Below are positions 11,850-56,708 of a stretch of 64,000 bases of DNA, piece after piece. Positions within the stretch are counted from its first letter, which is position 1. Every line of letters begins with the position of its first letter. Source of the DNA: a virus. The position numbers and the translations under genes are program-made. The stretch lies in the IMG/VR virus record IMGVR_UViG_3300045988_067909; one strand, given 5' to 3'. The notes under the pieces are model-generated. The model did no database searches. It was not told the DNA's origin and saw only the letters and a list, made by a program, of their open reading frames with translations.

Positions 11850-11895
11850 TAGGGTAGAGACAATGTCTCTACCCTAATCTTATTTTATTTTTTTA
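11850..11895. terminator. bidirectional intrinsic terminator between convergent genes
   Basis: AGGGTAGAGACAATGTCTCTACCCT palindrome flanked by A-run upstream and T-run downstream; sits between + gene ending 11844 and thyA exon 2 ending 11893. Confidence 0.65.
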
Positions 11896-12204
11896 AACAG
11901 CAACTACCATAGGGAGTTTACCCATATGGAAGTAGTTATCCACAATTACGCTATCTGGAGTAAAGTCATAGAAGTCTTGTACACTACCATTAATAACCAA
12001 TCTAGGCTCTTGTGTTGGTAGATTACCAGACTCATAACGTTTAATTTGTTCTTGTAAAGCTTCTATATGATTCTCATATATATGCATATTATTTACGATA
12101 TGAGTAAACTTACCAGGTTTAAGTTTACATACATGAGCTATCATATGAACTAGCATAGCGTATTGTGTTGTATTGAACGGGATTCCTAATCCCGTATCCC
12201 CCGA
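11893..12204 (-). CDS. thyA: thymidylate synthase, exon 2 (C-terminal 103 aa)
   Basis: Translation SGDTGLGIPFNTTQYAMLVHMIAHVC..GKLPMVVAV matches ThyA C-terminal half (compare T4 td ..[20 protein letters not shown]..); in frame with exon 1 across a 287-nt gap. Confidence 0.85.
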   Translation of the reverse strand, partial: SGDTGLGIPFNTTQYAMLVHMIAHVCKLKPGKFTHIVNNMHIYENHIEALQEQIKRYESGNLPTQEPRLVINGSVQDFYDFTPDSVIVDNYFHMGKLPMVVAV

Positions 12205-12491
12205 CAAAGTGTTCTAGTATGGTCGTTAATCATACTACGTTCTCTTATGAACTGCTATATATTTCTATATAGATCAGACTATATCACGATCCGTCCCTGG
12301 TAGGACCCCAAACGTTTCCACCCACTTAGGTGTACTCTACTCACTTACAGATATACTGTATGCTTTCGATAGTCGTTGAACACAAATCTATTATAGATTC
12401 TTCGTAAATGATTATCGTATAAGTAAATTATACGACGTTCCATTTTTAGTAAGGTTATTCGATGTATATTACTATACAAAGGCGCCCGTTA
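12205..12491 (-). other. group I self-splicing intron in thyA (no intron ORF)
   Basis: ThyA reading frame is broken exactly at the conserved ..LYQR|SxD.. position; upstream exon ends in U (CAG CGT), intron ends in G immediately before TCG GGG; spliced product reads LQR-SGDTG in frame; 287 nt with stops in all frames; candidate internal guide GCGC immediately inside the 5' end of the intron. Confidence 0.7.
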
Positions 12492-12980
12492 ACGCTGGAG
12501 GAGTATGCAGTTTAATTTATCTTCTTGAACATCCCATAGTGTCTCATAAGCACATGGTTGTAGTGCCATATCTGGGAGATCTTCTATGTTCCAGAGGGTA
12601 ACTATCATACGTCTGCTATCTGGATCAGTTTTAATAGTATTGATAAGATTGTCTAGTTGATTGTATTTAGCAATCTGATATCCATAGGCTTTGCCTATAG
12701 TACCATCTTCTCTCATCCATTCATCCCATACATGACAACCCATCTTTTGTAGCTCACGTACATCATTGGATTGCATTTGCCAGATCCATAATAGTTCTTT
12801 AAGAGCAGTCTTAGCTGCTACAAACTTAGATGATAAGATAGGGAATTCTTCTTGTAAATCAAACTGCATGATTTGGTGTGGTAACTTATATGTCGGAATA
12901 CCTGTACGGTTATTACTATATGTACCGTGGTCTAAGATATTCTTTACAATATCAATATACTGCTTATCTGCGGTTCTCAT
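12492..12980 (-). CDS. thyA: thymidylate synthase, exon 1 (N-terminal 163 aa)
   Basis: [100 protein letters not shown] closely parallels ThyA N-terminal half. Confidence 0.85.
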
Positions 12981-26613: not shown

Positions 26614-27354
26614 TTACCCCATAAGGATTTTTTCCATAGGAGAATCAACTGTCTTATCATTAATGATAGCATTGACTACAGCATCATCCCAGTTTTCAGA
26701 TGTAATAGATGAGAATGGTGAAATATATTTAGGTACCATCTTAACTGAAATAGATTTGTAATGATTCATATTTGGGTCTTTAGCTAAACGGAATGGGATG
26801 GATTCATCTTTAGCAGATCTACATACTTGAGAGATAATCATACCAAACATTTGAGCAGATAGACCGAATGAACTACCATTATATTTAATACTATCCATTA
26901 AGAATGTATGTAATTGATCATAAGGGATTGTATTAGGGATATTACCAGTAATCAAGAAGATCTTAAACATGTTTTCCACATTAGTGATATCTTCTGGAGA
27001 CTTAGTATTTAAGATAGCTATATCTCCCTTATGGAAACGTAATAAACGATAGTCCTTAGGGATAGGCGTCTTCTTATCTATTACATAGTCTTTGACTTTA
27101 TCTACTTGGTTAGGCATACAAGATATTACCATAGGGAAGTAAAACATCTTTAAACCTATTTCAGATTTACCATTCTTATCAAATACTTCATAGTTGAATA
27201 GGCCTAATGTATTTACATATTCACCAGCAAACTCAGCATATTTCATATTACCATCAGATCTAAAGTAATCTTCTGGGATATAGAATACTAGCTCTCCATC
27301 ACCATTAAAGATAAGAGAGTCTCCTTCTTTAGTTAAAAATTTAGGTATTGCCAT
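26614..27354 (-). CDS. hypothetical (virion module) protein
   Basis: 246 aa, AAGGAGG RBS, hairpin terminator CCTTATGGGGTAATACACCCTATAAGG downstream. Confidence 0.55.
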   Translation of the reverse strand: MAIPKFLTKEGDSLIFNGDGELVFYIPEDYFRSDGNMKYAEFAGEYVNTLGLFNYEVFDKNGKSEIGLKMFYFPMVISCMPNQVDKVKDYVIDKKTPIPKDYRLLRFHKGDIAILNTKSPEDITNVENMFKIFLITGNIPNTIPYDQLHTFLMDSIKYNGSSFGLSAQMFGMIISQVCRSAKDESIPFRLAKDPNMNHYKSISVKMVPKYISPFSSITSENWDDAVVNAIINDKTVDSPMEKILMG

Positions 27355-40134: not shown

Positions 40135-42228
40135 TTATCTTAAGAATAGTACCGCTTTAAGATAGTCCAATGTATATTTCAACGTAGACCCTTTGATGCG
40201 AATGACTTTATCATTAAATTTAGTTGTGCTATAGTACTTAGTAAAGTTAAAGTTAGTTTCTTTATTAAGTATATACACCATACACTTAGTATAGTCATTC
40301 AAGATTCTAGCTCTTGTATCAATTAGCTTCTTATCTTTATGACCTTTGTTTAGCATAGACTCAATACATATATTCATATACCATAGTTTAGCTGATTCGA
40401 ATTTAACACCATCCATATTACCAGCTGTCATATAGATTACCAATAAACGATGTGTCTTAAAGAACTCATCATCAAAGTTAATCTTTTCTGGCTTAGTAAT
40501 TAATAGATCACCATAGTTATTAAACTCTATAGGGATATCTTTAGCTTCATTAATAGCAGATTCACGTAAGATTCTATCAATCACTTTCTGTTTAGCTACA
40601 GATTGTAAACGTTTCTTATAAGCTATACTATCTGACGGTAAGAACTTGGTTGTTGGTACACCTAAAGCTAATAGCTTCTCTGTAGCACTAGTAAGTTCTT
40701 CTTCACTTTCAGAAGTTCTCCATTGCTTAATGGTTTTATTAACCATAGTAAACCATTTATTGAACGCTAAACGTTTACTACGATTAGAACTGATATCGAT
40801 ACCTTGCCAGATATCTTTATATGCATCTAGCCAAGCAAGCATATCTACACAATCAGTATCAGTACTATGCTTCCTAGTGTATTCTTTTAGCTTACTTTCA
40901 ATCTCTTCTGGTGTAAAGAATGGTACACCTGCTGGTAATACTGGATCTTGTATTTGATTACCCCAAACATCTGTAGCTTCTATTAGAGTGATATCTTGAT
41001 ACTTAAGTTCCATTGTATTTAGAAGATGAGACTTCATAAAGTTATAGAACGTTTCATTAGTACAACCAACTAACTCTAATAGTTTCCAGTCAGACATTTG
41101 TTGTAATTGAATAGGCATACCCTTATATAAAGACCATAGTTCTTCTAAAGATACTATAGACTTACATAGGTTCATAATATAGATACCTGTATTTAAAGAC
41201 CATTCTTTAGCAGAATGAAGTTCTCTACCCTTATTAGCAAGATTGATACCAAACATATTTGCTCTATTAAGAATAGCACTATTCTTTAATTGTACTTCTT
41301 CATCACTGATGTCAGCTTCAGCATCTTCTTTGATAGATATATTGTCATATTTAATAGGCTGATTCAAGAACTGTTTCTTTAATTCTTCATATCTATCTGA
41401 ATTGGTTTTACCAAATAGACGAATAGATACATCATCAGAGAAGCGTTGTTGGTCATTAGTTAAACCATAGAAAATATCCATCTGTGCATCTAATTCTTTC
41501 TCAGATTCTGGTGTAGCCAATACAAATGAATTAGGGTCACAGTTTAAGAATGCTTCTTTAGTATAGTTATCACAGTTGCTACATGGTGTATCAGATAATA
41601 CATTATCAGTTAACAATACATCATTCAAATCAATAGCTGAATCAGTACGATTCATAGTCTTTACATTAATAGCAAAGTATCCATCATTATCTGTCATTAC
41701 ATCGATATCAGGATGATCTCTAACTATCTCTTTGGCTTTATTCTTTTCTAATTCACCTATTAATGGCATATAGTCATCAGGTAACTTAGAGAAGTCTATC
41801 TCAGCCATTTCTGCTTCTTGCTCTAGAGTAGCAATAACAGAAGACATTTCAACCAATGCTTTATCTGGTTCAAATGTAATCTCTTCAAAGTCTTTATTGT
41901 ATTTGATTTGGTCATGAGAGATTAGTTCCATACCAGTCAATTGTTCATAGAAGTTATTAGCTTCTAGTTTACGTTTATCTTCACCTTTGAAACGGTATAA
42001 GTTAAACTTACGGTCTTTTAAGAAATCTGATTTCTTATATTCTTTTGTACCATCAGAAGACTTTACTTTAATAGTATCATCTTCTAAGTCTTTGGTTAAA
42101 CCATAACCCTCTACTGATTCATCACCAGTAAAAGAGTTACTGTAACCATATTGTACTACGATTTGATCACTAGCATTAGCTGGTGGAACTCCACCAACGT
42201 TAGCAGTGAACTCTTTTAGATTAGACAT
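40135..42228 (-). CDS. hypothetical protein (697 aa)
   Basis: Large ORF, start overlaps stop of upstream gene (ATGA-like coupling). Confidence 0.6.
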   Translation of the reverse strand: MSNLKEFTANVGGVPPANASDQIVVQYGYSNSFTGDESVEGYGLTKDLEDDTIKVKSSDGTKEYKKSDFLKDRKFNLYRFKGEDKRKLEANNFYEQLTGMELISHDQIKYNKDFEEITFEPDKALVEMSSVIATLEQEAEMAEIDFSKLPDDYMPLIGELEKNKAKEIVRDHPDIDVMTDNDGYFAINVKTMNRTDSAIDLNDVLLTDNVLSDTPCSNCDNYTKEAFLNCDPNSFVLATPESEKELDAQMDIFYGLTNDQQRFSDDVSIRLFGKTNSDRYEELKKQFLNQPIKYDNISIKEDAEADISDEEVQLKNSAILNRANMFGINLANKGRELHSAKEWSLNTGIYIMNLCKSIVSLEELWSLYKGMPIQLQQMSDWKLLELVGCTNETFYNFMKSHLLNTMELKYQDITLIEATDVWGNQIQDPVLPAGVPFFTPEEIESKLKEYTRKHSTDTDCVDMLAWLDAYKDIWQGIDISSNRSKRLAFNKWFTMVNKTIKQWRTSESEEELTSATEKLLALGVPTTKFLPSDSIAYKKRLQSVAKQKVIDRILRESAINEAKDIPIEFNNYGDLLITKPEKINFDDEFFKTHRLLVIYMTAGNMDGVKFESAKLWYMNICIESMLNKGHKDKKLIDTRARILNDYTKCMVYILNKETNFNFTKYYSTTKFNDKVIRIKGSTLKYTLDYLKAVLFLR

Positions 42229-43043
42229 TAATCTTCTCCTTTAAGTTCCTTGATGGCATTCTCACACCATGAAGTGAATTCATTAATATTGAAAGTCTTA
42301 GTATTATCATTATCCTCTAACTTGAAACGTAGTTCCATGAATATAGCTAATAGCTGTGCAAAGTTATTATCAGTAAGACGAATATAGTTATACTTGTCTA
42401 GAGTGATAATATTAAACTCTTTGGCTTTTTGTTTAGCTCTATACTCAGGCATGCTTCTTGTGTTAGGATGATCACCTCCATCTTTGACTTCGATTATGAG
42501 GTTATATGGTATATAATATATATCCGTAATCCAATTTCGTGTAACACCATTTTGGTCTACATATTGGATAGTTGGACCAGGCATCATAATATCATCACTA
42601 GGGATATGTAGAACTTTATCCATGAACTCAATAGCACGTTTCTCATATGTACCAGTATAAGTAAACATAGTACCATCAGAATATTTGTAAGTACCAGATA
42701 TACGTCTATTGGCTAACATCTTTTCTTGGTGCTCTGGATCATGCATGAATGTATATCTCCCATATACTTTATGCATATTCTCTAAAGCACGTTTACGCAT
42801 TTCTTTCTTACACTTCTCACTACAATACTTATTATATCTCCAAGTCTTTTCATTCCATTGTGTTTCATTCTTACAGATAACACAAGTTCCTTTAGACTTT
42901 TTATTAATTGTATTGAATACAATTCTAGCTGCAGAGTAACCCTCAGGGATTAGTTCTTGGTGTTTATTTTGTATATGTCTTACCAATGGTTCACGTTCTA
43001 GACGTTTCTCACAGAAAGGACATTTGAATCTTTTCGTTGCCAT
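42228..43043 (-). CDS. zinc-finger protein with possible PD-(D/E)xK nuclease core
   Basis: N-terminal C2H2-like CPFCEKRLEREPLVRHIQNKH and second Cys cluster CVICKNE..CSEKCKK; C-terminal ITDIYYIPYNLIIEVKDGG resembles a D..(E)VK restriction-endonuclease-fold motif. Confidence 0.45.
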   Translation of the reverse strand: MATKRFKCPFCEKRLEREPLVRHIQNKHQELIPEGYSAARIVFNTINKKSKGTCVICKNETQWNEKTWRYNKYCSEKCKKEMRKRALENMHKVYGRYTFMHDPEHQEKMLANRRISGTYKYSDGTMFTYTGTYEKRAIEFMDKVLHIPSDDIMMPGPTIQYVDQNGVTRNWITDIYYIPYNLIIEVKDGGDHPNTRSMPEYRAKQKAKEFNIITLDKYNYIRLTDNNFAQLLAIFMELRFKLEDNDNTKTFNINEFTSWCENAIKELKGED

Positions 43044-43140: not shown

Positions 43141-43542
43141 ATGGATACTAATAAATATAAGACATCATCTAAGATTAAAGAATATGCTTTATCGGTAGAT
43201 TCATTTAATAAACCAACAGAATATACTAATGCTAGAGCTATAGCTGTAGATATTATTAGACTATTCTTATTAGAACCTGGTACATTACAAAACAATCCAG
43301 ACTGTGGTATTGGTTTGTATAGTAGATATAAGTTTATAAATAGTGATAGACTACATGAACTAGAAGATACTGCCAAGAATCAAATACAAACATATCTTGC
43401 TCCTATGTCTTCTATTACAGTAGACTGCTCATTTATCAACGTAAATGTATTACTTATTAGAATGACTATTGACACATCTTCTGTCAATCTAGTTTTTAAT
43501 AAGGATAACCTTACTTTAAAAGATATTTCCAATTATAATTAA
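43141..43542 (+). CDS. hypothetical protein
   Basis: 133 aa ORF with AAAGGAGG RBS; divergent from the minus-strand block. Confidence 0.5.
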   Translation: MDTNKYKTSSKIKEYALSVDSFNKPTEYTNARAIAVDIIRLFLLEPGTLQNNPDCGIGLYSRYKFINSDRLHELEDTAKNQIQTYLAPMSSITVDCSFINVNVLLIRMTIDTSSVNLVFNKDNLTLKDISNYN

Positions 43543-45357: not shown

Positions 45358-45630
45358 ATGGAGATTATGAATGCTCCTGTATGGTATATGGTAGCCCTAC
45401 GATACTTTAAATACCAAGAACGTGTAACTGCTAAAAAGAAACAAAAAGAAGATGATATTAAAGCCAAAGCTAAAAAGCAAAGCTTTAATAAGAATAAATA
45501 CACTGGTAGACAGTTACTAGAGATGGATATAGCCAGAGAAAATGGTCACCATATCCCTGGTTTCGAAGGATTAACTAGAGACGAAGCTGATGATCTTAAT
45601 GAACAAATGATGGAAGAAGGTCTCATCTAA
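45358..45630 (+). CDS. small basic/acidic protein translationally coupled to the radical SAM enzyme
   Basis: 90 aa; stop TAA overlaps ATG of 45630 gene (TAATG); weak RBS. Confidence 0.45.
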   Translation: MEIMNAPVWYMVALRYFKYQERVTAKKKQKEDDIKAKAKKQSFNKNKYTGRQLLEMDIARENGHHIPGFEGLTRDEADDLNEQMMEEGLI

Positions 45631-46694
45631 TGTATACTATACCTAAGAAAGCAATTAATACTTTAGATGATTTTACTCTATCAAACTTAGAATTGATTCT
45701 AAATAAAGACTGTAATATGGCTTGTAGTTATTGCTTCTTATATGGTGATACAAATAGTGGTGAAAGATTCTCCAGATGGGATGACTTATTAGAGATGCTT
45801 AAGAATATAAATATATCTGAAACATTATCTGTTGGGCTAGACTCTGGAGAATTATTTACCCCTGATAGATTACCATTAGTTATGAAAGCTATGAGAGTCT
45901 TAAAAAAAATTACTAGGTATAAAAACACTACAATAGATTGGTGTACTTATAGTAATGGTACTAACTTCGAGCCTATAAGAGATTTCTTAATAGCAACTCA
46001 GGGTGAGAATAGAACCATTAGTGTATCATATGATGGCGAAGATTCATATAGAAGACTTAAGAACAATAAACCATCTAATACATTAGACACTCTTAAGAGA
46101 TTAAGTGAATCTGGATTTGCTAATGATATCATTATCAGATATGCTATTACAGAGAAAGTGTATAATATGAAAGAGACTTTCGATGCTCTATACAAATTAG
46201 GATATAAGAATATTGAATACTATTTTATACGTAATTATAATTCTTATACCATTCCACTAGTTGTGGATACTTTTAGAAAGAGTCTTACTGATACACTTAA
46301 CTATGTAAAAGATACTGATATTGATTTGTATAATCTACATGATTACTATAGCAATCAAAATCCAACCGTTATTTGTAACTATGGTAATATGCTCACTATA
46401 ACACCTAACGGTAAAATGAGTACTTGCTGTGCAGTCTATGAGGGTATCTATGCTGATAATGTAGAAGCTGATCTATTAGAGTATAATCGTATACCTGAAC
46501 TATATAACTCTTTCGAAGCTAACTATATCTATGATAGGTCTAAAAGTGAATGTGCAGTATGTACAAATCAAATGTGTAAAGAATGCTGTTCATATAAAGC
46601 TATTGGAAGAGATAAATATTATAATAAGAGACACCATCAACAGTGTCATATTAGGCATGCTGAACTAGCTGTCTATGATTCTATTTTTAATTGA
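45630..46694 (+). CDS. radical SAM enzyme with C-terminal SPASM/twitch-like Cys-rich domain
   Basis: CNMACSYC (CxxxCxxC) at aa 28-35; C-terminal CNYGNMLTITPNGKMSTCC .. CAVCTNQMCKECC auxiliary-cluster pattern. Confidence 0.8.
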   Translation: MYTIPKKAINTLDDFTLSNLELILNKDCNMACSYCFLYGDTNSGERFSRWDDLLEMLKNINISETLSVGLDSGELFTPDRLPLVMKAMRVLKKITRYKNTTIDWCTYSNGTNFEPIRDFLIATQGENRTISVSYDGEDSYRRLKNNKPSNTLDTLKRLSESGFANDIIIRYAITEKVYNMKETFDALYKLGYKNIEYYFIRNYNSYTIPLVVDTFRKSLTDTLNYVKDTDIDLYNLHDYYSNQNPTVICNYGNMLTITPNGKMSTCCAVYEGIYADNVEADLLEYNRIPELYNSFEANYIYDRSKSECAVCTNQMCKECCSYKAIGRDKYYNKRHHQQCHIRHAELAVYDSIFN

Positions 46695-47035: not shown

Positions 47036-47110
47036 ATGTGTAAATTCCCATAGTCCACATATAGGACTATGGGATTTCTACATATTAATAACTACGGAGG
47101 TTATAAAAAT

Positions 47111-48790
47111 ATGGCAGATAAACTTAGAGGAGATCATTTAGAGGTCTCTTTATTAGATATGGATGACTTCGTAAAGAAGAATAATCTACAACCTATAACG
47201 AATCCTATATTTTTTGATGTGAATGGTAATCCAACTGATGATGGATTACTATCTAATATCATCTTTGGTATTACTAAGCAAACACGTGCTGGTACTTTTG
47301 CTTATATTGATTTACATGGTAGATTCTTAGCACCATTGGTATACAAGATCTGGGGTAAGATTGATCGTAAACTAAAAGAAATTGTTAAAGGTACTAAGTT
47401 CTTTAAAATAGATTCGGATGGTCAATTTGTTGAAGATGAGAATGGTGAAACTGGTTTAGACTTCTTATATAAGAATATAGACAAGGTTAAGTTTAGAGAG
47501 ACTGGTTCTACTAAACGTAGTCGTTTTATTAAGTTCTTAGAACGTAACCGTAAGAACTTCTTCATTACTAAACTATTAATCATTCCACCATACTATCGTG
47601 ACGTTAAAAGTGATGGTGGTAAAGTCTCAGTTGGTGATATTAATAAGCTATACCAAAACGTATTAGTATCAGCTAAGTCTTTAGAAGAATCTAAATACTA
47701 TGGTATTAATATCGGTGATGCTAATAAGGGACGTATACAAGACTTACTATTAGAAATCTATAACTGGTTTGGCTCTGGTACAGAGTCTAATCCTAATGGT
47801 GGTATTCCTGGTAAGTTTGGTGTATTACGTCGTACTAATATTAGTAAGACTACAGACTATGCTACACGTTTAGTTATGTCTTCTCCAAATCTTAAAGTTG
47901 AAAATCTTGAAGATATCGAAGCTAACTTAGAATACTCAGTATTACCAATGACTTCAGCTGCAGCTAACTTCTTCCCATTTGTATTATTCCATATGAGAAG
48001 ATTCTTTGAAGAGCAATTTGCTGGACGTACAGTATACGAATGTATTGGTTCCAAGGGTGAAGTCTTATATCCTAGAATAGATGATTGGCAAACGTATTTC
48101 AATGATCTAGTTCTTAAGAAAGAGTTAGACCGTTTCATTCATGGTTATTCTGATAGATTTAGACCAATAGAAGCACCTATTAGTTCTAAAGAGATGGAAC
48201 GTATTGGTTATAAGGGTAAAACTTTATACATGAAATTTAAAGCACGTTTTAAACGAGTTGAAGATATTGCTGAAGATAAAGATTCTGGTGTAGCAAAAGA
48301 GCTTCAACGTAAACTAACTTGGTGTGATGTAATCTTTATGGCTGCTACAGAAGCTATAAAAGATAAAATGATTCTTATATCACGTTTCCCTATAGATACA
48401 TTCTATAACCAGTTCTCTACTAAATGTAAATTATCATCTACTATTGAAACTGAAAGTATAGAATTTGATGGTAAGTTCTATAAGAACTATCCTAAGATTC
48501 GTGATGAATACATTGGCACTAATACTGCAAATAAGTTTATTGATACAATGAATATCTGTAATGCTTATTTGGAATCTATTGGTGGTGACTATGATGGTGA
48601 TATGGTAACCATCAAAGGCATATTCACAGATGAAGCTAACGCTGAACTTAAAAAGCAACTAGAGTCTAATGTCCATTTTATTGACTTAGGTTGTAAAGCA
48701 GTAATAGCTAATACTAACGAATGTATCCAAGCATTGTTCTCTTTAACTATGACATTAGATGGGGATGTACTTACTGACCCTAAATTTTAA
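47111..48790 (+). CDS. multisubunit RNA polymerase beta-prime-like subunit, N-terminal portion (split beta-prime)
   Basis: GGIPGKFGVLRRTNISKTTDYATRLVMSSP parallels beta-prime [27 protein letters not shown]; catalytic-site-like IGGDYDGDMVTIKG (compare NADFDGDQM); ATG at 47111 after GGAGG. Confidence 0.8.
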   Translation: MADKLRGDHLEVSLLDMDDFVKKNNLQPITNPIFFDVNGNPTDDGLLSNIIFGITKQTRAGTFAYIDLHGRFLAPLVYKIWGKIDRKLKEIVKGTKFFKIDSDGQFVEDENGETGLDFLYKNIDKVKFRETGSTKRSRFIKFLERNRKNFFITKLLIIPPYYRDVKSDGGKVSVGDINKLYQNVLVSAKSLEESKYYGINIGDANKGRIQDLLLEIYNWFGSGTESNPNGGIPGKFGVLRRTNISKTTDYATRLVMSSPNLKVENLEDIEANLEYSVLPMTSAAANFFPFVLFHMRRFFEEQFAGRTVYECIGSKGEVLYPRIDDWQTYFNDLVLKKELDRFIHGYSDRFRPIEAPISSKEMERIGYKGKTLYMKFKARFKRVEDIAEDKDSGVAKELQRKLTWCDVIFMAATEAIKDKMILISRFPIDTFYNQFSTKCKLSSTIETESIEFDGKFYKNYPKIRDEYIGTNTANKFIDTMNICNAYLESIGGDYDGDMVTIKGIFTDEANAELKKQLESNVHFIDLGCKAVIANTNECIQALFSLTMTLDGDVLTDPKF

Positions 48791-48800
48791 CAAAAGAAAT

Positions 48801-48836
48801 CCCAGTATAGTCAATGACTATACTGGGTATATTTTA
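48801..48836. terminator. bidirectional terminator
   Basis: CCCAGTATAGTCAATGACTATACTGGG + TATATTTTACATT. Confidence 0.65.
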
Positions 48837-49193
48837 CATTCTTTTACGTTTATTGCCATTGAGTAATCCATTAATTTGTGTAATAGTAGTCTTCTGTACA
48901 TTAATAGCTTTGAAGTATTCTTTATTGATTTCTTCAAACTCTTTACTTCTAGGGTCTAGTATATTCATAAAATTACGGAATAACCCAACAAACGTCACTT
49001 TTGCAGAATATCGTTGGTTTTTAAACCAAGCAGATGTTTTAGCTGATTGATATACATTCATAAGATATTCAAGTTTTTCAAACTTATTATCTTGGCAAGC
49101 TTTCCATCCCTCATTTATAGTCTGAGCATATTCAAACTTGCCACAGTCTGCAATGAAATATATCAAATCGTCTATTCTAGATAAATTTGCCAT
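48834..49193 (-). CDS. hypothetical protein
   Basis: 119 aa ORF downstream of polymerase C-part on minus strand. Confidence 0.45.
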   Translation of the reverse strand: MANLSRIDDLIYFIADCGKFEYAQTINEGWKACQDNKFEKLEYLMNVYQSAKTSAWFKNQRYSAKVTFVGLFRNFMNILDPRSKEFEEINKEYFKAINVQKTTITQINGLLNGNKRKRM

Positions 49194-49208
49194 GCAACAC
49201 AGTTCCCT

Positions 49209-51272
49209 TTAAATAGTTATAATATTAGTATAGTTTACATTTTCCTTTTCGAATCTAGTTATACCAATAGACTCTAATGGGAAGTTCTTGATATTGGTAT
49301 TGATGATTTCAAAATAATCAGCATAGTCTAATACCCAGCTTGGTAAGTGTTCATCTGCTGGTACTGCAACGGCAAGTATCTCTCCCTTATACGTTGCTCT
49401 ATTATTATCAAAGAACTTAATAAGTCTTTCATATACCGCAGGATTAGACTGCTGTAATTCACCAATGTTTTTCTCTCTAATATTAACTTTAAGTATCTCT
49501 AAATAGTTTCTGCTATCTAAATCTATTGGTTCAGTACCCTCATCACGAATAGCTTCATTATACGCAATAGCTGCTTTAATACCTTGTATTCTCATAGGGT
49601 CTGCATATGAAGATATAGATTTTACAGATACTGGTTTGTAATAGTCTTTCTCTCCAGACTTGATACTATCATGGATATTTTTTTCAATCTTAGCTAGTAA
49701 ACCAATAACTTCTAATTGGTCTACTTCAGGTTTAAGTAATACTTTCTCTCTAAGTATTCCTTGAAGCTCATCTTTAATACTGTCTTTAAATACAGACTTA
49801 TTGATAGGAAGACCTTTAATATCCATTTGCTTATTCTTAGGTACTATATTACCCTCTTGAAGCTCTTGGATTGTAGCGTAGTTCTTCTTAGCTGGTGTAA
49901 GTAATGCACGTTTAAATAAGAACTCATTCTTCATGTCAATAAGACATACCTTGTATGGTGTCAAAGTATTATACTGCTCAGCAATAAGATGGAAATGAGA
50001 TTTAAGAATCTTACTTACGATATAGCATAAGATATTTACACTGGAAATGCGTACTGCATCATAACCCTCGGTAATCTTAGTCTCTTCTTCCACTTCTTCG
50101 ATTTCATCAGTATAGAAGTTGTATAACTCTTTTCTCTCTTTAGTTACAACTTCCTTGAGGTCATTGACTAATGTACAATCATGGTCTACTAAGATATTAT
50201 CTACAAGATGAATCCATTTATCTGTACTAATTACAGAAGAATCTGTATCTGTAAGTAATACGATATCCCTAGTCATAGTAGAGCATCTTTCAAACTTATC
50301 AGATACAATGTATCTCATATAACACCATTCCATAAATATAGTTGTAAGTTTATTTAGACTTTCAACTATATTCTCTGGTGGTTCATTAGGGTTCATAAAT
50401 GGTTCATTAATACCACTAAAGATATTCTTAATTAAGTCTTGTACGTGAGATGAATCAACTACAAGTCTATATAAGTTATTCTTATAGTATATCTTATTAA
50501 GTACTTCTTGAGATTGATACATCAAGATATTCCAAATGATATCACTATACTTACTGAAATGCTCTTCTGTATCATTAACCCATACGCCACAAGACTCTAT
50601 AACTTTCTTATAGACTTCTTCTATAGGTATATCTCTAGACAACTCTAGTTCTCTACTATAGATATGAGATGGTTCTTTAATAATCCTATTCAAGAATACT
50701 ACAGCTTCATCTATATTCTGGAACTTAAGATTATTAGTGAAGATTTGTTCAAATAAACTAATAGCATGAGTAATAAGCATACGACCTGTAGCTGTAGTCC
50801 CTACTGCAACGTATAAGTTATATGATGCTGATGCTGGTGAACCAATATCACCATATGTAGCATTACCATCACGTTTAGCTAATAGCTGTAATAGATTATA
50901 CTTATTAAATTCATCTGAACCCTTAGGGAATTCAAACATCTTCTTCTTATAAGCTTTACGTTTAGTTACATAAGACTCTAATAGTCTGTAGAATGGTGTA
51001 AACCCCTCTTCGTGTTGTTTAAACAAACACCCATTAGGAACTAAGATAGGTTTATCTGTCTCTATCTTATTAACTAAATCAGTTAACTGTAAGTCAACTA
51101 CAATATCTTTATAGTTATTATCTATACGTACATCTGGATTATTAAACTTCCGTTCAATAGCATCTTCAATGAAGAACTGTATTTCATCTATAGTCAATGT
51201 CGGGAACTGCATACGTAATAACGTAGTCATTTCCTCTTTGTATTTCTTAATCACATTCAAATCTAGTTTCAT
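49209..51272 (-). CDS. family-B DNA polymerase, C-terminal part (motifs B and C, thumb)
   Basis: Motif B LLAKRDGNATYGDIG (KxxxNAxYG), motif C VLLTDTDSSV (DTDS), KKNY (KKRY-like); begins where the 18614 gene stops. Confidence 0.85.
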   Translation of the reverse strand: MKLDLNVIKKYKEEMTTLLRMQFPTLTIDEIQFFIEDAIERKFNNPDVRIDNNYKDIVVDLQLTDLVNKIETDKPILVPNGCLFKQHEEGFTPFYRLLESYVTKRKAYKKKMFEFPKGSDEFNKYNLLQLLAKRDGNATYGDIGSPASASYNLYVAVGTTATGRMLITHAISLFEQIFTNNLKFQNIDEAVVFLNRIIKEPSHIYSRELELSRDIPIEEVYKKVIESCGVWVNDTEEHFSKYSDIIWNILMYQSQEVLNKIYYKNNLYRLVVDSSHVQDLIKNIFSGINEPFMNPNEPPENIVESLNKLTTIFMEWCYMRYIVSDKFERCSTMTRDIVLLTDTDSSVISTDKWIHLVDNILVDHDCTLVNDLKEVVTKERKELYNFYTDEIEEVEEETKITEGYDAVRISSVNILCYIVSKILKSHFHLIAEQYNTLTPYKVCLIDMKNEFLFKRALLTPAKKNYATIQELQEGNIVPKNKQMDIKGLPINKSVFKDSIKDELQGILREKVLLKPEVDQLEVIGLLAKIEKNIHDSIKSGEKDYYKPVSVKSISSYADPMRIQGIKAAIAYNEAIRDEGTEPIDLDSRNYLEILKVNIREKNIGELQQSNPAVYERLIKFFDNNRATYKGEILAVAVPADEHLPSWVLDYADYFEIINTNIKNFPLESIGITRFEKENVNYTNIITI

Positions 51273-51444
51273 AGCTCATACCTCCTGGTTAGTTTGGTGT
51301 TTTAAGCTATGTATTTTTGTATTTTTAAACCAGATTGCTAGCTATAGCTATAACAATACAGTAATCGTGGTTACCAAAACCATATAAATCCAAGAAAAAT
51401 ATTTTTCTTTTAAATCAATTCTTAATATTAAGGAGGATTATCTC

Positions 51445-51882
51445 ATGTTTTTTGATGACGACATTATGTTAGAAGACGCTCCTGTACTTGAAGATACAGC
51501 ACAAAGCGTAGTTGAAGCTACTGCAGCATCTTACTTGTACACTGAGCTTGCTAAATTGGATGACGAAGCTCGTAAAGAATTCGTTGAATCCGCTGAAGCT
51601 GAAGCTTTATTGGAAAAAGCAGTTCTTAACAAAAAGACTATGGTTCGTTTGTCCCGTCAAGATGATATGGCTCGCCGTGTAAAAATCGCTGCTTATCAAT
51701 TGGCTAAAGACAAAAAAGATCCATTATGGACTAAATTGGTTCTTAACCGTGTTAAAGAACGTCAACTTATTGCTAAGATTGTTCAAAAATACCACAATGC
51801 AGCAGTTAAACTTGCTAAAGTTGGTCAACGTGAATTCATCAAATCCGCATCCAAAGTTAAAGCATTACCTAATAAAAAATAA
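51445..51882 (+). CDS. hypothetical alpha-helical protein with highly-expressed codon usage
   Basis: 145 aa; Ala/Lys/Glu-rich; uses CGT, GCT, TTC, AAC almost exclusively; AAGGAGGA RBS. Confidence 0.55.
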   Translation: MFFDDDIMLEDAPVLEDTAQSVVEATAASYLYTELAKLDDEARKEFVESAEAEALLEKAVLNKKTMVRLSRQDDMARRVKIAAYQLAKDKKDPLWTKLVLNRVKERQLIAKIVQKYHNAAVKLAKVGQREFIKSASKVKALPNKK

Positions 51883-51893
51883 TCACAAAGTAT

Positions 51894-51930
51894 CCACTAT
51901 AGGGCACTGCCCTATAGTGGGTATTTTGCC
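51894..51930 (+). terminator. intrinsic terminator
   Basis: CCACTATAGGGCACTGCCCTATAGTGG + GTATTTTGCC. Confidence 0.6.
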
Positions 51931-51960
51931 TATAAAAATCAACAACGTTCCGGACATATA

Positions 51961-52003
51961 AATGTATATTATAGTAGTAGTAATATACATGGTTTATTTT
52001 ATA
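51961..52003 (+). promoter_or_regulatory. promoter-like module copy (B element with 3-nt insertion)
   Basis: AATGTATATTATAGTAGTAGTAATATACATGGTTTATTTTAT aligns with AGTTGTATACTATAATGGTAATATCATGGTTATATATTTAT. Confidence 0.5.
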
Positions 52004-52016
52004 AGGAGGAGCGTTT

Positions 52017-54143
52017 ATGAATAACCTAGCTAATTACGGTATCTATGCTGACTATGTCTTAGGTAAAGATATAGTCATAGACGTAGAAAAAATTAATATA
52101 TATAATTGGGAATCTCACTACCAAAGCATTCTAAATATCCTGAAAGATATGATTGAATCTGAATTAGTGAGAACTAAAAAGATTGGTGTACGGATTGGTG
52201 GTAAAGTTATTAAACTCACATTCGCACACTATATGATTAATATGATCTTCTGGAATATCATCGTTAAAGTCGGTGATACTATTAAACCAGAACACTTATT
52301 CTTCGATAACTGTATTCCTGGTAGAGCTATCGAAAGCTATATTAATAAACTTATCATTGGTCCATATAGAGAAATTATTCCATTGAAGACTTTGAATCAA
52401 GCTATTGCTGATATGATATTCAATATTAGTTTCGTGGACCAATTTGCACCATTCTTCGTTAATAGTGTAAACTTACATGACGAAGTTATGATGCTTAAGA
52501 ATATTCCTGAATATAGAAACCTTATCTATCCTAACTTAGATGAGGTAACTTTATCTGAATCTAAGTCTTATGGTAATAAGTTAATTGATAAGATTCAGGA
52601 TTATGTAAAGAACTCTAAGAAGTATATTGGATATGACCATATCTATGCTAATGCTTTTAGAGCAAAAGAAACTATCAACCTTAAACAGTTGAGAGAGTTT
52701 ATGGGATTCATTGGCGCTAAGCCAGATGGTGAGGGTGGTGTATATCCATACATTATCTCCAATAGCTTTATTACTGGTGGTGTAAATAATAATGTATCCT
52801 ATTTCATTGAATCTGCTGGTGGACGTATTGCCCAAATCTTAGCTAAAGATAACGTTGGTGATGCAGGTTACTTTGCACGTCTTCTTGGTCTATTAGCTCA
52901 AGAAAGTTATCTCCATGAAGATAAGAACTTCAAATGTGATACTCAAAACTTAATACCTATTACGTTTGATAATAAAGTCTTCTTCGATAAGTATATAGAC
53001 AGATGGTGTCGTCTAGAGCCTAATGGTTTTGATGTACTTATTACTGAAGATAGTTGGAAAGACCTCAAGGGTAAAACTGTATATCTATATAGTCCAGCTA
53101 CATGTGCATCTGCTGTACATGGTCATGGTATTTGCTATCGTTGTTATGGTAAGTTAGCTCATACTAATAATAATATCAATATCGGTAAATTCGCTGCAGA
53201 ACTTATCAGTAGAGAGTTTACTCAAGTACTATTATCAGCTAAGCATCTTCTTGAAGTTAAGCTTCAAACTATTGAATGGCCTGCTAAGTTCCAAAAGTAC
53301 TTTACTATCTTTGATAACCGTATTCTTCCTAAAGAAGAAGTAGATTTATCTAAAGTCAAGATTCGTATCTATAAAGATAGTATCTCTGAAGATACTACAG
53401 ATGAAGAATACGATTCTATCCGTGAAGAACGTGAAGATACTGATATCTTAAATGAATATATCGATAAGTTCATGATCATCGATGAAGATGGCGGTGAAGA
53501 AATCGATATAGACCATGTATCCAAGTTCTATCTTGGTGATATCTTTGGTAGAATGGTTAACTCTAGTATTCCTGATGATGATAGTGAGTATTTCGATGTA
53601 CGATTACATGTGGCTAAGAAGAATGCTAAACCATTATTGAATGAAGAAACTCCATTATTCTTTATGCGTATTCAAAATAACGAATTAGCTAAAACAATGG
53701 AACAAGCTCAACGTATTATCAATATTGCAAGTATAACTCCTAAGTTTACATTACCTGAAATCATTACTAAGTTTAACGCTACCATCATCGAGGGTGGTCT
53801 TAATGTAATGAGTGTACATACTGAAGTTATCATTGCTAACTTAGTTAGAGCGGCTGATGATATTATGGGTAAACCTGATTGGTCTTATCCTGAAGCCAAG
53901 TATCAATTACTTGCATTAAGCACAGCATTGAGAGAAAATCCATCATTGATTATCTCTTTAGCTTATGAACGTATTAAAGATACATTGAAGAACCCTAATA
54001 CATTCTTAAAAGAAACCCCATCTTCTATAGATTACTATTACATGCTTAATCCTCAAGAGTTCTTAAACCAAGAAGCTAGAGACTTGTCTATAGATGATAC
54101 TAAGAAAGAAGTCAAGAGCATGTTTGTTAAAGTTGAAGACTAA
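52017..54143 (+). CDS. multisubunit RNA polymerase beta-prime-like subunit, C-terminal portion
   Basis: CASAVHGHGICYRCYGKLAHTNNNINIGKFAAELISREFTQVLLSAKH parallels beta-prime ..C..[40 protein letters not shown] (trigger-loop region). Confidence 0.75.
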   Translation: MNNLANYGIYADYVLGKDIVIDVEKINIYNWESHYQSILNILKDMIESELVRTKKIGVRIGGKVIKLTFAHYMINMIFWNIIVKVGDTIKPEHLFFDNCIPGRAIESYINKLIIGPYREIIPLKTLNQAIADMIFNISFVDQFAPFFVNSVNLHDEVMMLKNIPEYRNLIYPNLDEVTLSESKSYGNKLIDKIQDYVKNSKKYIGYDHIYANAFRAKETINLKQLREFMGFIGAKPDGEGGVYPYIISNSFITGGVNNNVSYFIESAGGRIAQILAKDNVGDAGYFARLLGLLAQESYLHEDKNFKCDTQNLIPITFDNKVFFDKYIDRWCRLEPNGFDVLITEDSWKDLKGKTVYLYSPATCASAVHGHGICYRCYGKLAHTNNNINIGKFAAELISREFTQVLLSAKHLLEVKLQTIEWPAKFQKYFTIFDNRILPKEEVDLSKVKIRIYKDSISEDTTDEEYDSIREEREDTDILNEYIDKFMIIDEDGGEEIDIDHVSKFYLGDIFGRMVNSSIPDDDSEYFDVRLHVAKKNAKPLLNEETPLFFMRIQNNELAKTMEQAQRIINIASITPKFTLPEIITKFNATIIEGGLNVMSVHTEVIIANLVRAADDIMGKPDWSYPEAKYQLLALSTALRENPSLIISLAYERIKDTLKNPNTFLKETPSSIDYYYMLNPQEFLNQEARDLSIDDTKKEVKSMFVKVED

Positions 54144-54150
54144 AGAAACT

Positions 54151-54181
54151 ATACAGTATGGGAGCTATTCCCATACTGTAT
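54151..54181 (+). repeat. palindrome ATACAGTATGGGAGCTATTCCCATACTGTAT (near-copy of hairpin at 514-548)
   Basis: Arms identical to the 514-548 hairpin; weak T-tail, sits 20 nt before helicase start. Confidence 0.55.
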
Positions 54182-54200: not shown

Positions 54201-55781
54201 ATGAGAGCTATAATACGAAATACCTGTATAGTAGTTACTGATTATACTCCAGGTAAAGTACCTGGGTTAGAAAAGTACTTTACTATCTTCGATCCTTTGA
54301 CTCATACATATAAATACGTAGGAGTTAGGTTTGACGAAGAGAAGAAACTTATGTATCTCCCTAGAGGGGTTGATACAGGATTTATAGCTAGAACTTTAGG
54401 TGTAGAAATGGAACGTGAGTACAATAGTGATCCATATGAGCAGACTACTATGACCACTATTAAGTATATGCCTAGAGATGATGTACAAAAAGAGGCTTTA
54501 AGATTCATTCTAGCTAAGGGTGAATACATGGCCAATAGTAATAGGACACAGTTATCGGTAAACTTAAATACTGGTGCTGGTAAAACCTATGTAACTATAG
54601 CAGCTATGGCATATTGGAATATAAAGATATGCGTAATTGCCTCAAATAAGGCATGGTTAGAACAGTGGCAAAACTGTGTAGCAGAATATACCAATACCGA
54701 CATTAGGGAGGTACTGATAATCACTGGTGCAGCTGCTATACACAAGATTCTTAAAGGATTTACCGACCTATCTAAGTATAAAGCATTCATGGTAACTCAT
54801 TCTACACTAAAGAACTTTGGTGAACGATTTGGATGGGATTCTATAGGTGAACTATTCAAGAAGCTTAATGTATATATGAAAGTATTCGATGAAGCACATC
54901 TTAACTTTGAGAATATTGCTAGTATAGACTATGCTACAAATACAAAGAAGACTTTATATCTTACAGCTACACCTATACGGAGTAATAGTGATGAGAATAC
55001 TATCTATAAACTATACTTTAAGAATGTACCTAAGATAGACTTGTTTGATGCTGATAATGATCCACATACAAGATACCATGCTATACTGTATAATAGCAGA
55101 CCGACTCCACAGATGAGAGCTAACTGTTATAATTACATGTATGGCTTAGACCGTAATAAATATATGAACTCATTAGTCAATACTGAAGAGTTTAGAAAGA
55201 TTATGCTTGTTATGATGGATAAGATTCTTCGTATAGGCGGTAAAGTCTTAGTATATATTGGGACTAACCAAGCTATTGAAGAGATTAAAGTCTGGATAGA
55301 AGAGAACTATCCAGAGTATCGTGGTGATGTGGGTATATTTACATCCACATATACACAAGCAGAGAAGCAAGTTGCACTATCTAAGACTATCATTCTCTCT
55401 ACAACTAAGTCAGCTGGCGCTGCTTTAGATATACGTGGTCTTAAGGCTACATTTGTATTAAATGAACCATTTAAGTCTGAAGTATTAGCTAGACAAACCC
55501 TAGGCAGAACTAGAAATGATGATACTGACTATATTGAGTTTGTAGATACAGGATTTACATCTACTAGACAGTATTATAGAGCTAAGAAACCTATATTTAA
55601 GAAATATGCTTCAGATTGTAAAGAAATCCAACTAGATTTCAATACATTGAATAATAAAGCTGAAGAACTTGAGTTAATTCGTGAGAATGTAAAAGCTCAA
55701 TATGAAGCAAAACGTATGTTTATAGACTATCGAGATACATTCGATATAAATAGCGTATATAAGAAAGATAAAGACAAATAA
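54201..55781 (+). CDS. SF2 DEAH-box helicase
   Basis: Motif I NTGAGKTYV, motif II VFDEAHLNF, motif III LTATP, motif VI QTLGRTRN. Confidence 0.8.
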   Translation: MRAIIRNTCIVVTDYTPGKVPGLEKYFTIFDPLTHTYKYVGVRFDEEKKLMYLPRGVDTGFIARTLGVEMEREYNSDPYEQTTMTTIKYMPRDDVQKEALRFILAKGEYMANSNRTQLSVNLNTGAGKTYVTIAAMAYWNIKICVIASNKAWLEQWQNCVAEYTNTDIREVLIITGAAAIHKILKGFTDLSKYKAFMVTHSTLKNFGERFGWDSIGELFKKLNVYMKVFDEAHLNFENIASIDYATNTKKTLYLTATPIRSNSDENTIYKLYFKNVPKIDLFDADNDPHTRYHAILYNSRPTPQMRANCYNYMYGLDRNKYMNSLVNTEEFRKIMLVMMDKILRIGGKVLVYIGTNQAIEEIKVWIEENYPEYRGDVGIFTSTYTQAEKQVALSKTIILSTTKSAGAALDIRGLKATFVLNEPFKSEVLARQTLGRTRNDDTDYIEFVDTGFTSTRQYYRAKKPIFKKYASDCKEIQLDFNTLNNKAEELELIRENVKAQYEAKRMFIDYRDTFDINSVYKKDKDK

Positions 55782-55787
55782 AGGATT

Positions 55788-55822
55788 CCGATATAGGCAA
55801 TGCCTATATCGGATTTTTGTTA
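55788..55822 (+). terminator. intrinsic terminator (TATAGGCAATGCCTATA family)
   Basis: CCGATATAGGCAATGCCTATATCGG + ATTTTTGTT. Confidence 0.7.
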
Positions 55823-55833
55823 TCTAAGACTTT

Positions 55834-55885
55834 TTCAATTGTATACTATATTGGTAATAGTGATTATGTATATTTATTTTAATTT
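55834..55885 (+). promoter_or_regulatory. promoter-like module copy (B element)
   Basis: TTCAATTGTATACTATATTGGTAATAGTGATTATGTATATTTATTTTAATTT. Confidence 0.55.
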
Positions 55886-55904
55886 CCACAAGGAGGGACC
55901 TATC

Positions 55905-56708
55905 ATGAGAACTATTAATTTTAGAACAGACGCTTCCCGTTACGATGTTGCAGATTTATCCTTAGCAACTGGTCTTACCATTAGTGAGTTAATGATTAAT
56001 GCAGATAAGCATTATGAAAAAACTTGCAAGGCCTTAATGAAAAAGGTCGTTACTAAAGACTTAGCGAAGGAAATCTTCAAAAACATCAAAAAAGGAAAAC
56101 TTACCAATATCCACGATATTGGTAATGCATTCTATGTAATGGGTGCACTTAGTTCCAAACCAAAGAAAGATAAGCTATTAGTAATTAAAGATTTACTAGT
56201 AAAATATCTTTCCATCTATTACAATAAACGTACTGATAAATACGGTATTGTAAAAGATGAGGACATCGCAGCGTTGCTCGATGTCTGTGGTGAAACCAAA
56301 ATTGTAGTAGCTAAGAAAGCTAAAACTAATAACAATGATGGTGAAGCCAAAAAACAACACACAGTATCCGATACAACAAAAGCTTATAATAAATTAAATA
56401 AGCTAATCAACTTAAAATCTATTAAAAAAGATGTAGTTGATGTATTGGTGAAAACTGTGAATAAGGATGCATATAAACGCATCCAAACCCAAGCTGATAG
56501 TCTTGGTAAAGATCAAAGATTCTTCTTCAATAAGAAGGAGTCTGATCTTAAAAATGGTGTTTTGATTCTTCAAGGTCTTAATGACGCTGGTGAACGTTTC
56601 AATATTAAATTGGAACTCCCTAAAGCTAATAAACCAGCGAAGAAACAAGAACAACCAAAACAAGAAACAGCTACAGTAGAAACAGAATCTACAGAAGCTT
56701 CTGCATAA
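55905..56708 (+). CDS. hypothetical Lys-rich protein, highly-expressed codon usage
   Basis: ATG at 55905 after CAAGGAGGG; 267 aa, Lys-rich with KK/KAKK tracts; CGT/TTC/AAC-biased codons. Confidence 0.55.
   Translation: MRTINFRTDASRYDVADLSLATGLTISELMINADKHYEKTCKALMKKVVTKDLAKEIFKNIKKGKLTNIHDIGNAFYVMGALSSKPKKDKLLVIKDLLVKYLSIYYNKRTDKYGIVKDEDIAALLDVCGETKIVVAKKAKTNNNDGEAKKQHTVSDTTKAYNKLNKLINLKSIKKDVVDVLVKTVNKDAYKRIQTQADSLGKDQRFFFNKKESDLKNGVLILQGLNDAGERFNIKLELPKANKPAKKQEQPKQETATVETESTEASA

Follow-up and report, generated by a model that had tools for sequence, protein, structure and literature searches.

Neighboring beta-prime-like genes of an uncultivated jumbo phage very probably belong to two different RNA polymerases

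The IMG/VR virus record IMGVR_UViG_3300045988_067909 was analyzed over a stretch of 64,000 nucleotides, here called the window. Its positions 47,111 to 54,143 hold two open reading frames (ORFs) that resemble the N- and C-terminal parts of the beta-prime subunit of multisubunit RNA polymerases (RNAPs), with a DNA polymerase gene on the opposite strand between them. Are these two ORFs the halves of a single split beta-prime subunit, as a preliminary description of the sequence had proposed, or are they pieces of two different enzymes? The evidence presented below points to the second answer. The genome, which is that of an uncultivated jumbo phage of the phiKZ/AR9 group of about 260 kb, very probably encodes two RNAPs; the first ORF (ORF1) would be a piece of the virion enzyme (vRNAP) and the second (ORF2) a piece of the non-virion enzyme (nvRNAP), the two lying close together through a kept ancestral gene order.

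The two-RNAP system of phiKZ-type phages has fragmented beta and beta-prime subunits and neither alpha nor omega, as is the case here. Early genes fall to the virion enzyme and late genes to the non-virion enzyme; in each of the two beta-prime homologs the split follows the double-psi beta-barrel (DPBB), at the same position as in cyanobacteria (PMC7598289). In AR9, the vRNAP is made of gp145, gp264, and gp125 (beta-prime) and of gp189 and gp078 (beta) (PMC5312081), and the nvRNAP is made of gp270 (beta-prime N), gp154 (beta-prime C), gp105, gp089, and gp226 (GenBank record; PMC5312081). The two ORFs of the window and their diagnostic motifs are as follows.

47111-48790, + strand: ORF1, 559 amino acids (aa), predicted N-terminal beta-prime-like fragment of the virion RNAP, AR9 gp145 ortholog
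48584-48601, + strand: GDYDGD, Mg-binding catalytic loop of the DPBB (ORF1 aa 492-497)
52017-54143, + strand: ORF2, 708 aa, predicted C-terminal beta-prime-like fragment of the non-virion RNAP, AR9 gp154 ortholog
53133-53150, + strand: CYRCYG, beta-prime region G just before the trigger-loop segment (ORF2 aa 373-378)
53235-53255, + strand: trigger-loop segment of ORF2 (…SAKHLLE)

The starts at 47111 (559 aa) and 52017 (708 aa) were also chosen by independent metagenome gene callers, and strong ribosome-binding sites (RBSs) precede both ORFs, that of ORF1 being GGAGG. In ORF1, GDYDGD aligns with the catalytic loop of bacterial beta-prime and is separated from the end of the protein by 62 aa, which is the conserved beta-prime split site. 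ORF1 contains no introns.

Several comparisons assign ORF1 to the virion type. In a PHROGs search, it matches phrog_2986 over profile positions 8 to 535 of 539 (E = 2.6e-76, 258 bits), versus only E = 3.1e-05 and 24 bits for phrog_2987, the non-virion type. The AR9 proteins sort onto the same profiles, with g145 on phrog_2986 (380 bits, virion beta-prime N) and g270 on phrog_2987 (316 bits, non-virion beta-prime N). A tblastn search of ORF1 against the whole AR9 genome retrieved the three exons of g145 (189, 43, and 38 bits) and g270 with 37 bits, and in the reverse direction (tblastx against the window) g145 matched ORF1 only. Moreover, ORF1 and g145 share an insertion of about 100 aa that the non-virion beta-prime N proteins do not have, the alignment shows that ORF1 has no counterpart of the LNRNPTI block of these proteins, and a hidden Markov model (HMM) of the non-virion beta-prime N family gives ORF1 54 bits versus more than 230 bits for true members. 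A PDB search with ORF1 alone matched no phage nvRNAP chain. A profile built from ORF1 and seven annotated homologs matched AR9 gp270 (7S00/7S01) at about 5e-26 (7s00_d, 5.9e-26); over 100 chains of bacterial beta-prime and cyanobacterial gamma subunits were matched as well, with E values near 1e-17, and hhalign aligned the profile with the non-virion beta-prime N profile over 405 columns with 99.8% probability. Homologs of ORF1 in the phages Madawaska, MarsHill, and N1M2 are annotated as viral or virion-associated RNAP beta-prime, and the homolog in phiR1-37, g178, as a phage structural protein. On these similarities, ORF1 is identified as the N-terminal beta-prime fragment of a virion RNAP, and its product would be expected in virions by homology to AR9 gp145 and phiR1-37 g178.

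ORF2 sorts with the other enzyme. Its CYRCYG motif aligns with CRKCYG of gp154 and with CSKCYG of C. difficile beta-prime. The protein matches phrog_3015 over profile positions 33 to 637 of 653 (E = 4.3e-51, 175 bits), versus E = 1.8e-06 and 28 bits for phrog_2962, the family of the middle part of the virion beta-prime; in AR9, g154 falls on phrog_3015 (485 bits, non-virion beta-prime C) and g264 on phrog_2962 (376 bits, virion beta-prime middle). Used alone against the PDB, ORF2 matched the AR9 nvRNAP chain 7s00_D at 1.9e-38 over residues 129 to 669 and, in the stretch with CxxCYG and the trigger loop, C. difficile beta-prime at 3.9e-5. In the whole AR9 genome, tblastn with ORF2 found g154 only (156 bits), and the reverse tblastx identified ORF2 as the counterpart of g154 in the window. 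Homologs in MarsHill and RAY are annotated as "non-viral" or "nvRNAP beta-prime". ORF2 is thus predicted to be the C-terminal beta-prime fragment of a non-virion RNAP. Much of the preliminary description holds at this level: motifs and alignments place the catalytic loop in ORF1 and the CxxCYG/trigger-loop region in ORF2 at the positions that it gave, the PHROG matches make both ORFs beta-prime-like fragments of phiKZ/AR9-type jumbo-phage RNAPs, and ORF1 is an N-half that ends shortly past the catalytic loop, with ORF2 being a C-half.

They do not appear to be halves of the same subunit. One beta-prime split into two genes, belonging to one RNAP and with the polymerase gene inserted between them, would account for several features of the locus: ORF1 stops about 60 aa past the catalytic loop, ORF2 has the downstream regions, together they would span a full beta-prime, and both lie on the same strand 3.2 kb apart. 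This reading is nevertheless very unlikely, because the two paralogous families into which the ORFs fall supply different enzymes in AR9, and because the reciprocal best matches are g145 (virion) for one and g154 (non-virion) for the other. A natural fusion points the same way. Gene 14 of Fusobacterium phage JD-Fnp1 (ON464759, 14842-17634; 930 aa) has an N-terminal phrog_2986 module, with 25.5% identity to ORF1, and carries phrog_2962 at residues 555 to 920, so that virion beta-prime N and middle parts are joined in one polypeptide and this phage, of 180 kb, either lacks the split or has reversed it. The physical partner of the ORF1 family is therefore the virion beta-prime middle fragment and not the ORF2 family. 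Furthermore, homologs of the two ORFs are 19 to 56 kb apart in Staphylococcus, Listeria, and Yersinia relatives, and in the window hairpins and three intervening genes stand between them. The cyanobacterial and plastid rpoC1-rpoC2 genes (gamma/beta-prime) are split at the same position, but there the pieces are halves of one enzyme, whereas the neighboring N and C fragments of the window are best assigned to two. The proposal of a single divided subunit is accordingly abandoned in favor of a virion-set ORF1 and a non-virion-set ORF2, an outcome that the preliminary description had itself named as one that would refute it.

What lies between and around the two ORFs accounts for their proximity. 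The preliminary description recognized the catalytic part of the DNA polymerase on the opposite strand in the intervening 3.2 kb, which is correct, and missed two further small genes. The genes concerned, with the other part of the split polymerase, are the following.

48834-49193, - strand: 119-aa ORF downstream of the polymerase gene, no Pfam or PHROG match
49209-51272, - strand: catalytic (C-terminal) part of a split family-B DNA polymerase, AR9 gp152 ortholog
51445-51882, + strand: 145-aa AR9 g153-like virion protein (phrog_26909, 1.5e-05; tblastn g153, E = 0.001, syntenic)
54201-55781, + strand: superfamily 2 (SF2) DNA/RNA helicase, AR9 gp156 ortholog (Pfam ResIII, 5.9e-14; tblastn g156, 192 bits)
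18614-20491, + strand: exonuclease part of the split polymerase (phrog_3011, 2.9e-57; Pfam DNA_pol_B_exo1; tblastn AR9 g132, 250 bits)

The catalytic part matches Pfam divDNApol (PF20286) at positions 416 to 697 (E = 1.9e-34), phrog_2927 (3.9e-64), and AR9 g152 (tblastn, 239 bits). The split family-B polymerase, SbcC, and a helicase are core genes of RNAP-encoding jumbo phages (PMC7598289).

The AR9 locus g145-g156 (KU878088, 118 to 132 kb) contains the same genes and the same polymerase split. Its order is g145(-), then 2 kb on g152 polB(-), g153(+), g154(+), g155, and the helicase gene g156(+); the series in the window matches it, and every member is a BLAST match. Common to both is the divergent core of polB(-), the g153-like gene(+), the non-virion beta-prime C gene(+), and, farther on, the helicase gene(+), with the virion beta-prime N gene a few kilobases past the polymerase gene. 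The loci also differ: proteins are only 26 to 34% identical and there is no match at the nucleotide level, ORF1 has the opposite strand from g145 relative to the polymerase gene, g145 carries two introns with homing endonucleases and ORF1 none, and a single 119-aa ORF stands in the window in place of g148 to g151. Listeria phage LPJP1 has the order polB-catalytic(-), small gene, non-virion beta-prime C gene, one further gene, and helicase gene. Staphylococcus phage SA1 keeps the non-virion beta-prime C and helicase genes, with the N part of the polymerase and the portal gene upstream. The linkage of the helicase gene to the non-virion beta-prime C gene is thus kept in AR9, SA1, and LPJP1; the arrangement in phiR1-37 is different. 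ORF1 and ORF2 are close to each other because an ancestral order is kept, namely, virion beta-prime N, then at some distance the polB catalytic part, the virion protein, non-virion beta-prime C, and helicase. What had been taken for an odd interleaving of replication and transcription genes is instead a gene order common to AR9 and LPJP1.

If two enzymes are encoded, further pieces of both are expected in the genome. One of these lies in the window itself.

26614-27354, - strand: AR9 gp125 ortholog, 246 aa (tblastn g125, 28.6% identity over 252 aa, E = 2.3e-21; phrog_2926, the g125 family)

This gene, a third RNAP gene that the preliminary description did not include, adjoins the tail sheath gene, as in AR9. 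In AR9, gp125 makes up the extreme C-terminal part of beta-prime in the virion RNAP (PMC5312081). The gp125-like gene, being a virion beta-prime piece, would therefore belong to the same enzyme as ORF1. The other large ORFs of the window encode SbcC, the polymerase exonuclease part, portal, sheath, terminase, a leucine-rich repeat (LRR) protein, and others, none of them an RNAP subunit. Consistent with the preliminary description, no beta-like subunit is present in the window, where tblastx with all nine AR9 RNAP gene regions gave the counterparts of g145 and g154 only, and the partners lie outside. A weak tblastx match to AR9 g189 had made the 925-aa ORF at 29065-31842(-) a candidate beta subunit; it was rejected as a BspA-type LRR protein (PF13306, 8e-08), the g189 match being due to chance.

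The genome portion examined for RNAP subunits amounts to about 105 kb, or some 40% of the approximately 260 kb. In it, the gene for a non-virion betaN (gp105-like, E = 1.6e-41, phrog_2943) stops some 1.2 kb short of the first position of the window, and that for a non-virion betaC (gp089-like, phrog_3295, 3.9e-85) stands just upstream of the DNA ligase gene, as in AR9. About 17 kb upstream, a gp078-like virion beta piece of 239 aa (phrog_3233, 5.7e-36) is encoded by a gene of its own. A gp226-like gene (E = 4e-6) is found 7 to 9 kb beyond the window end, where the GroEL-g227-g226 order is conserved. The search for beta-like fragments and for a second RNAP set, which the preliminary description had proposed, therefore yielded pieces of both enzymes and left some subunits without a location in this portion. 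Family assignment, orthology, motifs, and synteny were established here for the two ORFs, and other subunits of both enzymes are present in the same genome.

The transcription signals of the locus bear on the same question. AR9 early promoters precede all nvRNAP genes, and the AR9 vRNAP genes are all late, with the nvRNAP genes being early or continuously expressed (PMC5312081). The AR9 late consensus is AACA-N6-T(A/G) (PMC7598289), and an early consensus, AAATATATATTAT-N5-tGa, was derived from 34 annotated AR9 early promoters. The promoter-like and terminator-like elements found are listed below.

47047-47073, + strand: hairpin CCCATAGTCC-acatata-GGACTATGGG followed by ATTTCT, between the upstream gene and ORF1
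47079-47090, + strand: tACATATTAATA, one-mismatch variant of AACA-N6-TA, before the ORF1 RBS
48801-48827, no strand: bidirectional terminator-like hairpin of 12 pairs between ORF1 and the convergent polymerase operon
51290-51301, - strand: late-type motif AACACCAAACTA of the polymerase catalytic part, beginning 29 nucleotides (nt) upstream of the ATG
51352-51363, + strand: AACAATACAGTA, upstream of the g153-like gene
51894-51920, no strand: terminator-like hairpin between the g153-like gene and ORF2
51960-52001, + strand: early-type promoter-like element upstream of ORF2, AAATGTATATTATAG … CATGGTTTATTTTA, beginning 57 nt before the ATG
54151-54181, no strand: terminator-like hairpin after ORF2
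gp125-like gene: AACAACTCATTA, beginning 29 nt upstream of the ATG
21103, 26590(-), 27383(-), 33755(-), 39111(-), 43077(-), 51301(-), 58314(-), and 59981(-): examples of AACA-N6-TA
6594, 7282, 10804, 11367, 13080, 16332, 18261, 27430, and 55837, + strand: early-type element, strong sites
7858, 13609, 15929, 39168(-), 51960, and 58296: early-type element, weaker sites

A promoter-like element of the form AGTTGTATAcTATAATGG-taatatc-ATGGTTATATaTTTA, followed at some distance by the RBS, recurs 57 to 68 nt before start codons, mostly those of small genes. This element, whose core is akin to the AR9 early consensus, is probably the early promoter of the phage, read by the virion RNAP. A position weight matrix (PWM) of the 18-nt core, used since a rigid 48-nt PWM had missed sites of differing spacer, found 20 sites in the window versus 6.2 expected, many of them between 6.5 and 18 kb. 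The site at 51960, upstream of ORF2, is the only one in the window with a single mismatch to the AR9 early consensus, and its distance to the ATG is that of the strong sites; a putative early promoter of the AR9 type precedes the non-virion gene of the window, as one does in AR9. No early-type site was found upstream of ORF1 in the PWM scan of the window. Another of these sites touches gene calling: the start of the longest ORF at 55800-56708(+), 55800, is probably wrong, given that the early core at 55837 lies inside it and that metagenome gene callers start at 55905 (267 aa).

AACA-N6-TA behaves as a real signal in the window. It occurs in 34 copies versus 86 ± 9 expected, a depletion of approximately 2.5-fold overall and approximately 5-fold in coding sequence, and 20 of the 34 copies fall in the 10.9% of the sequence that is intergenic, mostly 25 to 50 nt upstream of structural genes. 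The window motifs resemble those of AR9 and not the TATG late motif of phiKZ (PMC7598289). An exact copy at 46639 lies inside the gene upstream of ORF1. Between 45000 and 56500, terminator-like hairpins number 16 versus 3.6 expected, and sigma-70-type promoter-like sites number 37 versus 64.5 ± 8.2 in shuffled sequences; this combination of hairpin enrichment and sigma-70 depletion is consistent with transcription independent of the host RNAP. The hairpin at 47047-47073 was not flagged by the terminator scan, and its T-tract is short. Taken together, the signals would fit the AR9 timing of late vRNAP genes and early or continuously expressed nvRNAP genes.

By analogy with the work on AR9 and phiKZ, from which virion packaging, early/late timing, and subunit assembly are carried over, the two ORFs would act as follows. 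ORF1 would supply the clamp/DPBB half, with the Mg-binding aspartates, to a packaged and injected enzyme that reads early promoters and that would be composed of ORF1, a gp264-like beta-prime middle piece, the gp125-like C-terminal piece, and beta-like pieces. ORF2 would supply the bridge-helix/trigger-loop half to an enzyme made after infection that reads late promoters, composed of ORF2, a gp270-like beta-prime N piece, betaN, betaC, and the gp226-like promoter-specificity subunit. The two ORFs would then be separate, hairpin-bounded transcription units.

Several observations count against this assignment and have to be weighed with it. Both RNAP sets are presumed to be complete, yet several subunits were not located: within the 40% of the genome covered, no non-virion beta-prime N (gp270-like) and no virion beta-prime middle (gp264-like) gene was found. 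The same holds for virion betaN (gp189-like). ORF1 has no exact late-type motif, and the mismatch in tACATATTAATA falls at a position that is critical in AR9. The early-type site at 51960 is weak, scoring only 11.8 bits with the PWM of the window itself and having a spacer 4 nt longer than at the strong sites. Finally, Pfam-A, with RNA_pol_Rpb1_1 to _5 included, gave no family at E <= 1 for either ORF. The check by Rpb1 HMMs that the preliminary description had suggested thus failed as worded, and homology to RpoC is seen through the PHROGs, PDB, and profile comparisons. PF00623 and PF04997 are carried by relatives of the non-virion beta-prime N type, so that the Pfam link of the window ORFs is only transitive. 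In view of the profile and PDB matches, the Pfam-A failure is attributed to sequence divergence and not to a lack of homology.

Could these ORFs be decayed, nonfunctional remnants of RNAP genes that were retained by chance? That Pfam-A recognizes neither of them would suit this explanation. Their PHROG matches are full length, however, the catalytic and region G motifs are intact, both ORFs have strong RBSs, and ORF2 is 95 to 100% conserved in 19 IMG/VR contigs (it is also present in 61 blocks of metagenome assemblies), which leaves remnants with next to no credibility.

The missing gp270-type gene suggests another alternative, in which the non-virion beta-prime N gene was lost in this lineage and ORF1 serves as the N half of both enzymes. 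It agrees with the result for the approximately 105 kb and with the finding that the database candidates for such a gene lie on contigs of other phages. P0104, P0117, and P0057, retrieved by protein search, belong to other jumbo phages, and among the best 80 of 288 candidates of an alignment-based IMG/VR scan none was on contigs of this phage. Searching with a degenerate (IUPAC) DNA pattern of the invariant R.N.SAR.VI.P block gave 109 loci; three groups from the same sample series, examined by promoter fingerprint, contig coverage, and close-relative scans, were all other phages. Two genes of 78 and 362 aa that follow the non-virion betaN gene were considered as a further-split beta-prime N, by comparison with the gene order beside P0057, and showed no HMM or BLAST similarity. 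Sharing of ORF1 is still highly improbable: with some 40% of the genome covered, absence of the gene is not established, the genome has four other nvRNAP genes, all of them intact, and ORF1 lacks the early-type promoter that an nvRNAP subunit would need. The reading retained is that of two enzymes, with ORF1 in the virion and ORF2 in the non-virion RNAP.

The same phage has been assembled repeatedly, in ENA and Logan contigs of 259 to 332 kb and in 19 IMG/VR contigs that include HMP-series samples, and it is probably human associated. Megablast of the region from 46 to 56 kb against GenBank phages gave no match. Similarity is weaker to the phiKZ-like phages of Pseudomonas than to the clade of AR9, Staphylococcus, and Listeria phages of Gram-positive bacteria. 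The phage is new to annotated collections, and it extends the AR9-like branch of two-RNAP jumbo phages by a divergent uncultivated member; the genes, the split, the two-enzyme assignment, and the neighborhood are all known features, and the neighborhood of virion beta-prime N, polB, non-virion beta-prime C, and helicase genes is old.

For annotation, the locus cautions against pairing adjacent beta-prime "halves" by proximity, since the virion and non-virion sets interdigitate. The pairing of pieces can be read only from paralog-specific profiles (phrog_2986 and phrog_2962 versus phrog_2987 and phrog_3015) or from fusions such as JD-Fnp1 gene 14, which in its database record is annotated as "RNA polymerase subunit alpha". 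The neighborhoods are in fact crossed, with virion beta-prime N near non-virion beta-prime C and virion beta-prime middle near non-virion beta-prime N. The latter two adjoin each other in AR9 (220.7 to 227.5 kb) and in two groups of metagenomic jumbo phages. Functional coupling need not be invoked for this pattern: ten RNAP genes placed at random in 251 kb would give some 1.8 pairs no more than 5 kb apart, and inherited synteny is sufficient.

The gp226-like subunit leads to a further question, that of the DNA base read by the late enzyme. The window contains a thymidylate synthase gene at 11893-12980(-) that is split by a group I intron at 12255-12501. Exon 1 runs from 12980 to about 12502 (Pfam Thymidylat_synt positions 1 to 168 of 266), and exon 2 is the ORF at 11893-12207. 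The intron matches RF00028 with 52.4 bits (gathering score 50; E = 7e-12), a match seen only with permissive filters on a short region, a gathering-mode Rfam run over the whole window having given nothing. By tblastx, the intron region resembles intron parts of AR9 g145, g078, and g189. The td gene of T4 is likewise split by a group I intron. A gene for dihydrofolate reductase (DHFR) lies in the flank, at the window equivalent of 3852-4358. The AR9 annotation lists neither thymidylate synthase nor DHFR, whereas this phage encodes both, and its DNA therefore probably contains thymine and not uracil.

In AR9, recognition of the late motif takes place on the template strand and strictly requires uracil at -11/-10. 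In AR9, Val206 of gp226 excludes thymine (PMC9209446). In an alignment of the gp226-like protein that has only 21% identity and offers no more than a lead, AR9 Val206 is replaced by Lys271 and Tyr210 by Lys275; the stacking residue of gp105, Arg363, is retained as Arg391. It is conceivable, if somewhat doubtful, that the non-virion RNAP to which ORF2 is assigned represents a natural thymine-tolerant version of the AR9 template-strand promoter recognition. Were this so, such recognition would not be tied to uracil DNA. An AR9-type late motif in a phage with probable thymine DNA may merit specialist attention.

A few other genes of the window are of note. Two genes upstream of ORF1, a radical S-adenosylmethionine (SAM) protein with a weak SPASM match is encoded at 45630-46694 (+) (Radical_SAM, 8.1e-07; phrog_1802, 5.1e-19), for which tblastn found no AR9 match. 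The LRR protein at 29065-31842, which lies among structural genes, may take part in host recognition. An endonuclease with an N-terminal zinc finger is encoded at 42228-43043(-) (phrog_15137; AR9 g233-like, E = 1e-42), divergently from a g232-like baseplate wedge gene at 43141-43542(+), and AR9 has the same pairing.

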